In this document: one piece after another, positions 3,434 to 17,120 of the stretch
Layout of the letters: each line of letters begins with the position of its first letter
How positions within the stretch are numbered: the first letter of the stretch is position 1
NCBI GenBank assembly: GCA_964016885.1
Contig: OZ024740.1
Location: 362,762,001 to 362,826,000 of the forward strand
From: Eledone cirrhosa
Taxonomy: Eukaryota
Length of the DNA: 64,000 nt
Direction: 5' to 3'
Notes under the pieces: generated by a model
Seen by the model: only the letters and a program-made list of their open reading frames with translations
Told to the model about the DNA's origin: nothing
The model's database searches: none
Made by a program: the position numbers and the translations under genes

Positions 3434-5408
3434 ATGAAAAATATGAAAACATGGCGTGCTGCGTGGTTGCATATGGGTTACATATGAATAAATTTAGTCC
3501 TTCATCAGTGATCTTCCAACCTTCATTGGTATTTCATCGCTTTAAAGACCATATATGGTGCGAGCAACGGCTAAAGAAAGTCGTTGGGACACGTAAATAG
3601 GGGAAACGATCGAGACAGTAAACAAACTATGATGGTAATGCAACGAAAAGTGAGGAAGAAGGAGTCAAGTCCCTGAAATCGATGAACATAAGTTCTGTGA
3701 AATCGTAGACGAGAGAGAATAAAGACCATCCGACCTGGTCGAAGTGTGAGTGAGAAAAGAATCTCGCACAGGTCAAACGGGAGGAAGTAGGAGAGGGAGT
3801 AGCAGAGATTGAGTGAGTGAAAGTGTGAGGAAGAGGCTAACAGAGAGAGTGATTGGTAGAGGGGGTAAAAGGAAGTGAGAGATACAAAGAAAAGGTGAAG
3901 CAGTAAGAAAGAAACAGACGGGTCACAGCGGAGGAAAATATATTTGAAAAATATGAAAACATGGCGTGTTGCGTGGTTGCAGATGGGTTACATATGAATA
4001 AATGTAGTCCTTCATCAGTGATCTTCCAACCTTCATTGGTATTTCATCGCTTTAAAGACCATATACCTCTGGTTGGTGCCAACAACGGCTAAAAAAGTCG
4101 TTGTGACACGTAAATAGGGGGAACGAGCGTGTCAGTAAACAAACAAAGATGGGAATGCAACGAAAAGTGAGGAAGAAGGAGTCAAGTCCCTGAAATCGAT
4201 GAACATAAGTTCTGTGAAATCGTGAACGAGAGAGAATAAAGACCATCAAACCTTGTCGAAATGTGAGTAAGGAAAGAATTCCGCACAGGTCAAACGGGAG
4301 GAAGAAGGAGTCAAGTCCCTGAAATCGATGAACATAAGTTCTGTGAAATCGTAGACAAGAGAGAATAAAGACCATCCGACCTGGTCGAAGTGTGAGTGAG
4401 GAAAGAATCTCACAAAGGTCAAACGGGAGGAAGTAGGAGAGGGAGTAGCAGAGAGTGAGTGAGTGAAAGTGAAAGGAAGAGGCTAACAGAGAGAGTCACT
4501 GTTAGAGGGGGTAAAAGGAAGTGAGAGATACAGAGAAAAGGGGGAAGCAGTAAGAAAGAAACAGACGGGTCACAGCGGAGGAAAAATATATATGAAAAAT
4601 ATGAAAACATGGCGTGCTGCGTGGTTGTAGATAGGTTACATATGAATAAATTTAGTCCTTCATCAGTGATCTTCCAACCTTCATTGGTATTTCATCGCTT
4701 TAAAGACCTTATACCTCTGGTTGGTGCGAGCAACGGCTAAAGAAAGTCGCTGGGACACGTAAATAAGGGGGAACGAGCGAGACAGTAAACAAACAAAATG
4801 GTAATGCAACGAAAAGTGAGGAAGAAGGAGTCAAGTCCCTGAAATCGATGAACATAAGTTCTGTGAAATCGTGGACGAGAGAGAATAAAGACCATCAAAC
4901 CTGGTCGAAATGTGAGTAAGGAAAGAATTTCGCACAGGTCAAACGGGGGGAAGAAGGAGTCAAGTCCCTGAAATCGGGGGAACGCGCGAGACATTAAACA
5001 AACAATTACGTGTCCCAACGACTTTCTTTAGCCGTTGCTCGCACCAACCAGAGGTATGTGGTCTTTAAAGAGATGAAATACCAATGAAGGTTGGAAGATC
5101 ACTGATGAAGGACTAAATTTATTCATATGTAACCCATTTGCAACCACGCAGCACGCCATGTTTTCATATTTCTCATATATATTTTCCTCCGACGTGACCC
5201 GTCTGTTTCTTTCTTACTGCTTCCCCTTTTCTCTGTATCTCTCACTTCCTTTTACCCCCTCTACCAGTCACTCTCTCTTCCTCCCATTTTCACTCACTCA
5301 CCTTCTGTTACTCCCTCTCCTACTTCCTCCCATTTGACCTGTGCGAGATTCTTTCCTCACTCACACTTCGACCAGGTCGGATGGTCTTTATTCTCTCTCG
5401 TCTACGAC
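3434..5408. mobile_element. Non-coding repeat family A: tandem ~500-650 bp units with a terminal inverted unit (inversion near 5005); probable non-autonomous PLE derivative
   Basis: Unit starts GAAAAATATGAAAACATGGCGTG at ~3436, 3946 and 4593; 5006-5408 is its reverse complement; bounded by (TA)n; related to 61159-62015. Confidence 0.65.
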
Positions 5409-5473
5409 ATATATATATGTATACATATATATATACATATAAATATATATACATATATATACATATATATATA

Positions 5474-5659
5474 TCTTTCACCGTATTTTTGACTAAAGGC
5501 TTTTTAGTCTGATAATGGGGTTTATAACCGTCAGATAAATGGAAAAAGAAGAGTATTGACTACATTATCAGACTAAAATTCCTTTAGTCAAAAATACGGT
5601 GAAAGCTATTCTAATTTTTAATTTCAAACCTGCCCACTGTTTCAAAACATACTTACTTG
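5474..5659. repeat. Small element with ~43-bp inverted repeat (5475-5517 vs 5563-5606); mirrored at ~16048-16232
   Basis: CTTTCACCGTATTTTTGACTAAAGG..TTTTAGTCTGATAATG versus CATTATCAGACTAAAA..CCTTTAGTCAAAAATACGGTGAAAG. Confidence 0.8.
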
Positions 5660-6344
5660 ATATATATATACATATATATATATATATATATATATATATA
5701 TATATATATATATATATATATATATATATATATATATATATATGTATATATATATATACACAAATATATACACATACACACACACACACACACATATATA
5801 TATATATATATATATATATATATACATATATATATATATACACATACATATATATATATATATATATATATATATATATATATATATATATATATATATA
5901 TATATATATATATGTGTGTGTGTGTGTGTGTGTGTGTATGTAACACACATTCACTGTGTAGGTAGATAATTTGTCTGTGTTTGATATACACTCCCCGGCC
6001 GCATAAAAACAAACATACCTACACACACATATGTATTGTATATATATACAATGTATATATAAATATATATATATATATGTATATATATATATATATATAT
6101 ATATATACAGTGTATATATATATATATATATATATATATATATATATATATATATATATATATACATATATACAGTGTATATATATATATACAGTGTATA
6201 TATATATATATATAGTGTATATTTATATATATACGTATATATATAGTGTATATATATATATATATATATATATATATATACATATATACGTATATATATA
6301 GTGTATATATATAGTGTATATATATATATATATATATATATATA
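5660..6344. repeat. Compound (TA)n/(CA)n/(TG)n microsatellite; PLE target array
   Basis: Direct reading; TAGTGTATA and TACGTA interruptions near the PLE junction. Confidence 0.95.
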
Positions 6345-6382
6345 TAATATAAGATCAAAAGATGGTTAAAGGAGTTCAATAT

Positions 6383-14072: not shown

Positions 14073-14510
14073 TCTTTAAAATATACCCATCTACCTTACT
14101 TTAAAGGGCATTATACACTCTATAGTACTCGTTTACTCATTTACCTCATCTTATCTTCTCGTAAAACAATAACATTTGTTTTTGACATTTTGAATATTCA
14201 TCCGCAATCATTATTATTTTTTTTCCCTCTATCATAAATCTTTTTAATCTCAATTTCATCCTTAATTTATTATTATATATTTTTTTAATATATACTCATA
14301 TATTCTTTAAAATATACCCATCTACCTTACTTTAAAGGGCATTATACACTCTATAATACCCGTTTACTCATCACCCTCATTATATCTCCTCGTAAAACAA
14401 TAACATTTGTTTTTGACATTTTGAGTATTCATCCGCAATCATTATTATTTTTTCTCTCTATCATAAATCTTTTTAATCTCAATTTCATCCTTAATTTATT
14501 ATTATTTTTT
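14073..14510 (+). repeat. ~230-bp tandem duplication in the PLE 3'UTR
   Basis: TCTTTAAAATATACCCATCTACCTTACTTTAAAGGGCATTATACAC at ~14073 and ~14304. Confidence 0.85.
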
Positions 14511-15249
14511 TCTCCCCATCAACGAACTCATTATTAATACATATGAATTCAATATAAAACTCTAACTTCACATTATTTTTCTCAAATCCTATACATAAAC
14601 TTTTTCTCTTTGCTAATTTTAAAATTCCTACATTTCTCCTTTTGAATATTCACCCACAATTATTATTTTTTTTTTCTCTCTATCTCCATACATAATCTCC
14701 CTTCGTTATTTTTTTCTCTCTATCTCCATACATAATTTCCCTTCGTTAATTTTCAAATTCCTTTAATTTATACATTATCTTCCAACGGTTCCCAACCTCT
14801 CTATATTAAAACATTATATCTTTTTCTCAGTTATAAAAACTATCTCTTTCTCTCTATCACCCATCTCTCCCTTTCCACCTTCACTCTCATCTCCTCCCCT
14901 TTTTTTCATCCTTTCCACCCCCACCCCTCCCTAAATATAATATATTTTTTCCTCGCACATATCCTCCCTTCGTTAATTTTCAAAATTTTTAATTTATACA
15001 GTATCTTCCAACGGTTTTCAACCCCTCTATATAAAATATATCTCCTCTCTGTTATAAAAAACTATCTCTTTCTCTCTATCACCCATCTCTCCCTCTCATC
15101 TCCTTCCCTTTTCATCCTTTTCTCTCCCCCCCTCTCTAAATAAAATATTTTTCCCAATATCACACATCAATCTAAAACCACTTTTCATATGTTGATTTAA
15201 AACTGCACTATCAACAAGTGTTTTTTTAGCCTTCATATCATGTTCTCCT

Positions 15250-15318
15250 GTTTTATCTGATGAAAACACAAATATTATTGTTTGATGATGTTTGTTTTTG
15301 AAATGCGCATAATAAAAT
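15250..15318 (+). ncRNA. Minimal type-I hammerhead ribozyme in 3' pLTR
   Basis: Same sequence as 11341-11409. Confidence 0.88.
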
Positions 15319-17009
15319 ATATTGAACTCCTTTAACCATCTTTTGATCTTATATTATATATATATATATATATATATATATATACACTATATATATACAC
15401 TATATATATACGTATATATGTATATATATATATATATATATATATATATATACACTATATATATACGTATATATATAAATATACACTATATATATATATA
15501 TATACACTGTATATATATATATACACTGTATATATGTATATATATATATATATATATATATATATATATATATATATATATATATACACTGTATATATAT
15601 ATATATATATATATATATACATATATATATATATATTTATATATACATTGTATATATATACAATACATATGTGTGTGTAGGTATGTTTGTTTTTATGCGG
15701 CCGGGGAGTGTATATCAAACACAGACAAATTATCTACCTACACAGTGAATGTGTGTTACATACACACACACACACACACACACACATATATATATATATA
15801 TATATATATATATATATATATATATATATATATATATATATATATATATATATGTATGTGTATATATATATATATGTATATATATATATATATATATATA
15901 TATATATGTGTGTGTGTGTGTGTGTATGTGTATATATTTGTGTATATATATATATACATATATATATATATATATATATATATATATATATATATATATA
16001 TATATATATATATATATATATATATATATATATATGTATATATATATCAAGTAAGTATGTTTTGAAACAGTGGGCAGGTTTGAAATTAAAAATTAGAATA
16101 GCTTTCACCGTATTTTTGACTAAAGGAATTTTAGTCTGATAATGTAGTCAATACTCTTCTTTTTCCATTTATCTGACGGTTATAAACCCCATTATCAGAC
16201 TAAAAAGCCTTTAGTCAAAAATACGGTGAAAGATATATATATATGTATATATATGTATATATATTTATATGTATATATATATGTATACATATATATATGT
16301 CGTAGACGAGAGAGAATAAAGACCATCCGACCTGGTCGAAGTGTGAGTGAGGAAAGAATCTCGCACAGGTCAAATGGGAGGAAGTAGGAGAGGGAGTAAC
16401 AGAAGGTGAGTGAGTGAAAATGGGAGGAAGAGAGAGTGACTGGTAGAGGGGGTAAAAGGAAGTGAGAGATACAGAGAAAAGGGGAAGCAGTAAGAAAGAA
16501 ACAGACGGGTCACGTCGGAGGAAAATATATATGAGAAATATGAAAACATGGCGTGCTGCGTGGTTGCAAATGGGTTACATATGAATAAATTTAGTCCTTC
16601 ATCAGTGATCTTCCAACCTTCATTGGTATTTCATCTCTTTAAAGACCACATACCTCTGGTTGGTGCGAGCAACGGCTAAAGAAAGTCGTTGGGACACGTA
16701 ATTGTTTGTTTAATGTCTCGCGCGTTCCCCCGATTTCAGGGACTTGACTCCTTCTTCCCCCCGTTTGACCTGTGCGAAATTCTTTCCTTACTCACATTTC
16801 GACCAGGTTTGATGGTCTTTATTCTCTCTCGTCCACGATTTCACAGAACTTATGTTCATCGATTTCAGGGACTTGACTCCTTCTTCCTCACTTTTCGTTG
16901 CATTACCATTTTGTTTGTTTACTGTCTCGCTCGTTCCCCCTTATTTACGTGTCCCAGCGACTTTCTTTAGCCGTTGCTCGCACCAACCAGAGGTATAAGG
17001 TCTTTAAAG

Positions 17010-17120
17010 ATCTTTTGATCTTATATTATGCATACTCCAGTCCCACAAACTGTAGAGTGCTTCTTATCCGATATCTGCATTGCTTTATTGTACTACAATA
17101 AAACTCACCTCCTACATTTA
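17010..17120 (+). mobile_element. Isolated 110-bp PLE tail segment (copy of 11429-11539) ending in (TA)n
   Basis: ATCTTTTGATCTTATATTATGCATACTCCAG...CTCACCTCCTACATTTA matches the region upstream of the ORF. Confidence 0.93.

Follow-up and report, generated by a model that had tools for sequence, protein, structure and literature searches.

How can the insertion of one mobile element leave a palindrome that holds, besides the element, kilobases of the host DNA next to it? The question is raised by a locus of Eledone cirrhosa within the window analysed here, a stretch of 64,000 nucleotides (assembly GCA_964016885.1, contig OZ024740.1, positions 362,762,001 to 362,826,000 of the forward strand), in which two opposed copies of a Penelope-like element (PLE) form the core of a 12.3-kb inverted repeat. 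With moderate confidence, we read the locus as a recent PLE insertion in one (TA)n microsatellite, whose long cDNA folded back, was recopied through 1.65 kb of flank and was joined to a short second cDNA. Its parts are listed below by window position; A denotes the 3' end of the element that lies against (TA)n.

4698..6344, plus strand: left flank F, the original and presumed template of the inverted copy, with an older unrelated repeat (4698-5407), a small repeat (5474-5660) and CA/TA microsatellites (arm alignment).
6345..10849, minus strand: long PLE arm of 1.15 units with its 3' end at site A against (TA)n, the putative primary cDNA; its open reading frame (ORF) is frameshifted at 8064.
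10848..10851, no strand: AATT symmetry centre, native to the element, without spacer (arm alignment).
10850..15356, plus strand: mirror of the long arm, again ending at site A, an A-A pair that is rare in the family (arm alignment, family survey).
11618..14017, plus strand: intact ORF of 799 aa with reverse transcriptase (RT), Asn-rich linker, CxCX5C and, at the C terminus, a GIY-YIG-type endonuclease (motifs).
15251..15318, plus strand: hammerhead-like core (CTGATGA-stem-GAAA-TGCGCA-TA, core at 15257) in the pseudo-long terminal repeat (pLTR), with a second copy at 11348 (pattern match).
15357..17009, minus strand: inverted duplicate of flank F, 1,653 bp, with its interrupted TA tract (arm alignment).
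17010..17120, plus strand: short second arm with tail, ending at unit position 94 (element match, family survey).
17121..17500, plus strand: right-hand part of the microsatellite targeted; the 49 bp at 17138-17186 form a repeat resembling a target-site duplication (TSD).

The reverse-complemented left arm (4698-10849) was aligned globally with the right arm (10850-17009). The arms abutted without spacer, with the centre exactly at 10849/10850 (..AAAGGAA/TTCCTTT..) and outer limits at 4698 and 17009, and over about 6.15 kb they differed by no substitution and seven small indels, six of which lay in homopolymers or (TA)n/(CA)n. The seventh was the loss of 1 bp outside a homopolymer, at 8064, which puts a frameshift into the minus-strand copy of the ORF. 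The TA runs beside the two A ends were identical in length. A 6-kb arm at such identity cannot have originated by chance, and the palindrome, in a window that contains no N, is very probably a real feature of the genome. Each arm comprised about 4.5 kb of element, or 1.15 times the 3,911-bp unit (with a 596-bp pLTR repeat, 10850-11445 = 14756-15354), plus 1.65 kb of flank. The preliminary description, in which a minus and a plus copy of a PLE meet without spacer at an AATT native to the element and the symmetry runs on for 1.65 kb, so that flank 4698-6344 recurs as 15357-17009, thus held in the alignment; the element itself reads AAAGGAATT/TGAAAA at about 6935-6950. A separate PLE piece ending in (TA)n had also been described at 17010-17120, and it was recovered as a plus-strand match to element positions 11429-11539 followed by (TA)n. 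The flank copy meets this piece through an imperfect microhomology, CTTTAA, 2 nt before the joint.

Between the usual outer ends of an insertion of this family (A at 6345, tail at 17120), the locus therefore holds a reverse-complement copy of the long arm plus 1,653 bp of flank. It lacks the ordinary anatomy, in which A and tail ends are adjacent and the inverted part is element only. Its junction passes from cDNA to the reverse complement of that cDNA or of the nearby target, as in cDNA snap-back, and such junctions were also found at two other loci (L062 and L085).

The mirrored flank is not element DNA. It matched in only 14 of 232 loci tested, as scattered pieces of at most 260 bp at 85-95% identity, and the candidates of a fixed part of the family and of a 3' transduction were rejected on this count, which bears out the earlier description of the flank as non-element sequence. 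It is not unique DNA either, being composed of an older unrelated repeat plus microsatellites. A 49-bp exact direct repeat (17138-17186 = 6282-6330) is TSD-like, and the TA tracts at 6030-6344 and 17121-17500 had 26 of 73 interruption 14-mers in common, in the same orientation, whereas none of 96 control tracts exceeded 12. Judging by these shared interruptions, the outer (TA)n tracts, at 6344 and 17121, seem to be the two parts of a single microsatellite into which the element inserted, in agreement with the single TA target site proposed at the outset. The stretch at 3437-5407, which overlaps the flank, is an older repeat with three direct and one inverted copies (~92%) that is very abundant in the run contigs; it resembles a two-armed, non-autonomous insertion from another family.

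The element is assigned to the Hydra clade of PLEs by motifs that match the published description of the clade, whose members insert into (TA)n and encode an RT with a C-terminal GIY-YIG domain (Craig et al. 2021, PMC8557442). Its single ORF of 799 aa, read by motif, has YRDD at 356, IYECK..YFGST at 678 and FKARLYNH at 700, together with RWT at 36 (the Hydra RWK with its third letter changed), DKT at 122 and no GxKF/Y. The CxCX5C linker (CNCRIKNKC) lies at 658, and CNLC (CxxC), NRRS and CLH (CxH) follow at 758, 777 and 786. RW(K/T), DKT, CxCX5C, CxxC, CxH and the (TA)n target are all shared with the clade as set out in the parts of PMC8557442 that treat it, and the hammerhead-like pLTR core may be shared too. 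An assignment to Naiad/Chlamys was rejected because the endonuclease motifs are C-terminal (678-790 of 799 aa) rather than N-terminal. Pfam and NCBIfam scans of the ORF gave no useful match, and Rfam gave no hammerhead match for the pLTR core pattern (11348, 15257), returning hairpin and microsatellite noise only. Among 70 homologues of the ORF, all at 31-40% identity and one of them from Argonauta, DK[TS] was present in 64 and RW[KRT] in 39. In its source, the nearest named homologue (P0014) bears the label 'GATA zinc finger domain-containing protein 14-like'; it is likely a misannotated PLE ORF. The reference element carries an internal 210-bp repeat. Genome-wide, there are 3,557 exact copies of the A end followed by TA, 686 of the youngest variant, and these, with the surveyed loci, show insertion in (TA)n as in the Hydra clade; the tail end seen at 17120 (unit position 94) has 66 exact copies. 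The family is very active and the insertion at the locus is young.

What an ordinary insertion of the family looks like was taken from a survey of 153 loci, at least two of them duplicates (L053/L054, L076/L186). Stretches of 10 kb covered the tail-94 end at all of its 65 other copies as well as 58 A ends from the first 100 of the list, and stretches of 3 kb covered 30 loci out of 92 that share one tail-91 pattern. Two arms stood head-to-head at 124 of the 153, one terminating at A, the second 88-94 nt beyond it (a tail of about 91 nt). The remainder were 22 single-arm loci (some of them diverged copies or short loci), one A-A pair and six that were edge-cut or unresolved. Tail-only insertions made up 11 of the 65 tail-anchored 10-kb loci. 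A tail-bearing second arm is thus the norm, and since A + tail is the norm, the piece at 17010-17120 is the ordinary second arm of the family; the short second cDNA from the other strand, which had been postulated from the locus by itself, is borne out by this pattern.

The lengths of the arms bear on how the pairs are formed. Among the 124, the A arm reached more than 20 nt further 5' in 59 and the tail arm in 11, while in 54 both ended within 20 nt; 17 tail arms were at most 97 nt long, so that they had no overlap with the A arm. The arm lengths vary independently, fitting two cDNAs primed from opposite strands. Because an A-primed cDNA shorter than one unit has no tail to copy, and because a tail-primed cDNA cannot give a longer A arm, most head-to-head pairs would need two RNA-templated strands, and a single cDNA folding back cannot yield most insertions of the family. 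In 63 of the 124 the A arm was 158-180 nt long and stopped near unit position 3743, which is likely the 5' end of the element RNA; the RT likely starts internally, within the first ~170 and ~260 nt of that RNA. At unit position 3743, where CATATG is native to the element, there are also 543 perfect spacerless CATATG centres genome-wide (e.g. L132, L235-L254), at which both arms stop. The inspected ones (15 of 15 and 20 of 20) were ordinary A + tail insertions, and an exact A arm on both sides was present in none of 46 exact CATATG-centre loci. A spacerless centre was therefore rejected as proof of fold-back: of the initial view of the locus as a fold-back snapshot, the spacerless palindrome as such turned out to be commonplace, and the mirrored flank is what is unusual.

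A few insertions had further peculiarities. At L177-L178 (G000:C1:363086025-363095645) and L170, the A arm spanned about 2.4 and 2 units in tandem, respectively, and was joined to a very short tail arm; templates longer than two units therefore exist. Short reiterated pieces of the element lay at the arm junction of two loci (L058:8900-8964 and L171:4381-4879), which suggests repeated dissociation and re-priming.

For the locus itself, the following course may be envisaged. Both strands of the TA tract would be cut, and each 3' end would prime reverse transcription, one at A and the other about 91-94 nt further on, which gives the tail. By the usual route, the two cDNA 3' ends would then be joined head-to-head. 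Here the A-primed cDNA would instead have halted at GGAATT and primed on itself through the AATT palindrome, with extension along its own cDNA and onward into the attached flank strand up to 4698, where 5' resection possibly ended. Weak microhomology would have served to join the new 3' end to the 111-nt tail cDNA, and repair or replication would have fixed the product. Either the element RT or a host enzyme could have carried out the 6 kb of DNA-templated synthesis.

The same class, in which the mirror extends into the flank, was present at 2 of the 123 other 10-kb loci (95% interval 0.2-5.8%), in answer to the suggestion that copies of this kind should be sought through the genome. At L062, the A arm folded at CATATG; 309-312 bp of flank follow in mirror image, after which come another fold and finally a normal tail arm, and the two CATATG centres of the locus had 0 and 1 substitutions. 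At L085, arms of 3.97 kb, of which 3.3 kb is flank, surround a 1.7-kb unique element loop and differ by seven scattered substitutions, and given this divergence and the loop, L085 is unlikely to be a read chimera. The canonical tail end recurred at L062 and was missing at L085. Both A-A pairs found besides the locus, those of L062 and L085, carry mirrored flanks. In the lists of A-end positions (559 rows, some of them overlapping, read by eye, four lists showing pairs only if the TA runs are equally long), the only head-to-head A-A pairs within 20 kb were L085 and the locus. The flank-copying outcome is rare, at about 0.5-2% of insertions, and, as these lists gave no further A-A pair, a value close to the lower bound is the more likely; extrapolated to at least 3,557 insertions, 0.5-2% would be some 20-70 loci. 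The proposal that PLEs make multi-kb inverted duplications of their flanks is thus supported by the pattern at two independent loci, one of them with 3.3 kb of flank, and limited by its rarity.

Smaller products point the same way. Shorter snap-backs confined to the element were found at L185 (29 bp) and L180 (~170 bp), and direct copies of flank were caught between the A and tail arms at L034:8403-8731 (329 bp, from the right flank) and L077:3325-3371 (47 bp, with its source ~700 bp upstream); therefore, cDNA ends of this family prime on DNA before joining. The same-orientation or tail-to-tail pairs at L171, L172-174, L175 and L176 were discarded, as they proved to be tandem duplications or neighbouring insertions. 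As a separate observation, L093 is an A-only insertion at whose 5' junction (~3845-3930) 28 bp of the left flank recur in inverted form about a TA run, which resembles the reciprocal-end inverted duplications of L1.

Several points weigh against the reading of fold-back with copying of the flank. A fold without spacer on a 4-nt palindrome needs a stem of 1-2 bp, and the best hairpin predicted nearby, AAATT-AAAGG-AATTT, would leave a 5-nt spacer that is not present. The 6-bp microhomology stops 2 nt short of the joint, and the first cDNA contains the tail region, so it could be the copy source of the 111-nt piece. The far end of L085 has no tail arm, so joining to a tail cDNA is not obligatory. 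Two letters of the locus (12787 and 14151) are present in both arms and elsewhere in only 1 of 25 and 1 of 42 covering loci, in favour of copying, but locus-private letters are common to both arms of ordinary two-arm insertions too and hence are no proof of copying. Mirrored flanks were also seen at 8 of 121 ordinary insertions versus 12 of 662 family-free TA tracts (Fisher p=0.006), mostly older than the insertion (89-98% identity) or formed by the arms of another repeat (L031, L170); inverted DNA near TA tracts therefore has other sources in this genome. As to reads, no independent read or contig spanned 17009/17010: the contigs from three runs of one sample had depth 0 at 17009, a hole that is uninformative rather than supportive because the same contigs also lack the locus letter at 16535, and in one run of restriction site-associated DNA sequencing all reads at 17009/17010 (1,038/1,038) carried the family letter.

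Of the other explanations, breakage and replication survive best, although we regard them as unlikely. An unjoined cDNA end would enter S phase, the sister ends would fuse at AATT, and the chromatid would break 1.65 kb into the flank and join the reciprocal end with the tail cDNA. Fusion naturally yields a centre with zero spacer, joining of palindromic CATATG ends is routine in the family (543 loci), and the missing spacer keeps this course alive; for L1, fold-backs at the primary RT end have been proposed to arise by replication and fusion (10.1101/2024.12.14.628481). Fusion must, however, retain the original partner end, since the TA tract resumes at 17121; at L062 it would take two successive cycles within 1.2 kb, and for the fold around a 1.7-kb loop at L085 internal self-priming is simpler. 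The elements of the fold-back anatomy first described, namely an A-primed long cDNA, the AATT fold, the run into the flank and a short cDNA on the second strand, are supported, and the fold would more probably be an intramolecular snap-back than a fusion of sister ends.

An origin in two events is quite improbable. F, TA and inverted F, next to a tail-only insertion, would have come first, and a head-to-head PLE pair would later have inserted in the centre, or gene conversion would have made it symmetric. The excess of mirrored flanks at ordinary insertions, the tail-only insertions of the survey and the hairpin copying of a TA end at L093 all speak for such a course. Yet those other mirrored flanks are mostly 89-98% identical or belong to other repeats, whereas here the flank has the identity of the element, with no substitution, and a later insertion would be expected to be A + tail rather than A-A (124 versus 1 among 153). 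An assembly artefact out of palindromic fold-back reads is just as improbable: it would suit the absence of substitutions, the mostly homopolymer and microsatellite indels and the lack of an independent read across 17009/17010, but the mirror stops exactly at the canonical tail arm otherwise missing from the insertion, after which the same microsatellite resumes, and a read chimera has no reason to end there; moreover, the ~6 bp shared at the joint would be too short for an overlap join, L085 has a like anatomy with diverged arms and a unique loop, and the contig runs for 443 Mb without a gap.

Against this background, some parts of the favoured fold-back route have precedents: inverted tailed PLE insertions (PMC8557442, PMC3846280), snap-back of R2 and inverted duplication by L1 are known already. 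A partial tandem with an inverted 5'-truncated copy and a tail at one end is shared with PLEs generally (PMC8557442), but the tail is ~91-94 nt here versus 30-40 there, and in the account given there of such copies the inverted part is element only, with no flank mirror described. In vitro, the Poseidon PLE of Anolis cleaves AT-rich DNA on both strands, extends both, and has two RT starts that bound the tail (Frangieh et al. 2024, PMC11167929). These starts match the A and tail ends on opposite strands at 124 of 153 loci here, although Poseidon belongs to another clade and the sections of that study on the reaction describe no in vivo survey of paired-end junctions, snap-back or flank duplication. 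Self-priming was proposed for head-to-head palindromes of PLEs (Arkhipova et al. 2013, PMC3846280), which share with our family the inverted pLTRs, palindromic junctions and a one-sided tail; unlike there, most pairs here would need two RNA-templated strands, and self-priming would account for a rare class marked by mirrored flanks and a pair of A ends.

For R2 in PRINT, the 3' end of the cDNA primes synthesis on the cDNA or on nearby target before the 5' junction is made (Zhang et al. 2024, PMC11371274). That is an engineered non-LTR system in human cells with a single cDNA, and the sections concerned do not describe a complete run-through of the cDNA into kilobases of flank. With L1, ends that anneal to themselves on 2-bp homology give inverted duplications of nearby DNA, and fold-backs of the primary RT end occur; the inverted duplications shown there are on the reciprocal end, in cell lines and cancers (10.1101/2024.12.14.628481). 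Here, by contrast, the RT end is mirrored together with flank and healed by a second cDNA at the same site, in a reference assembly. The long duplications of Dualen in Chlamydomonas are direct and TSD-like (PMC9977147). No report of PLE insertions that mirror their flank was found in the literature searched, with early Penelope work and most subscription papers outside its scope.

Inverted structures are not confined to this family. A different TA-bounded element at 17499-20640, with 930-bp inverted arms (96%) and a 1.28-kb spacer, is probably an older two-armed PLE-type insertion, and an end resembling its own was noticed by eye in L111. More palindromes or inverted pairs lie at 23418-23559, 28564-28811, 35030-35303, 36274-38015, 37104-37319, 46635-47061 and 57539-60991 of the window, several of them (TA)n-bounded, and two-armed insertions of other families seem to abound in the genome.

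The formation of tandem and inverted tailed PLE insertions is named as unresolved in both PMC8557442 and PMC11167929. The present family, with thousands of young insertions whose two ends lie at two fixed start sites on opposite strands, links the in vitro result to genomes and separates the joining of two cDNAs, which is common, from self-priming, a rare course by which an insertion becomes a multi-kb host-DNA palindrome. More tentatively, Hydra-clade PLEs in general might prime on two strands in pairs from two fixed RNA starts and, if the cDNAs fail to meet, their own RT might snap back and copy the insertion and kilobases of host DNA, even repeatedly and with switches between DNA and RNA templates, as at L062; they would then steadily supply the germline with multi-kb inverted duplications, of which this one family would contribute tens, and tail-only insertions plus flank deletions would be the reciprocal products. 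That the PLEs of this family create inverted duplications of host DNA is likely. Multi-kb palindromes of this kind break easily and can give rise to second copies of regulatory or coding sequence, and for this reason PLEs, if the reading is true, would in PLE-rich animals rank with L1 and R2 as elements that generate structural variants directly.

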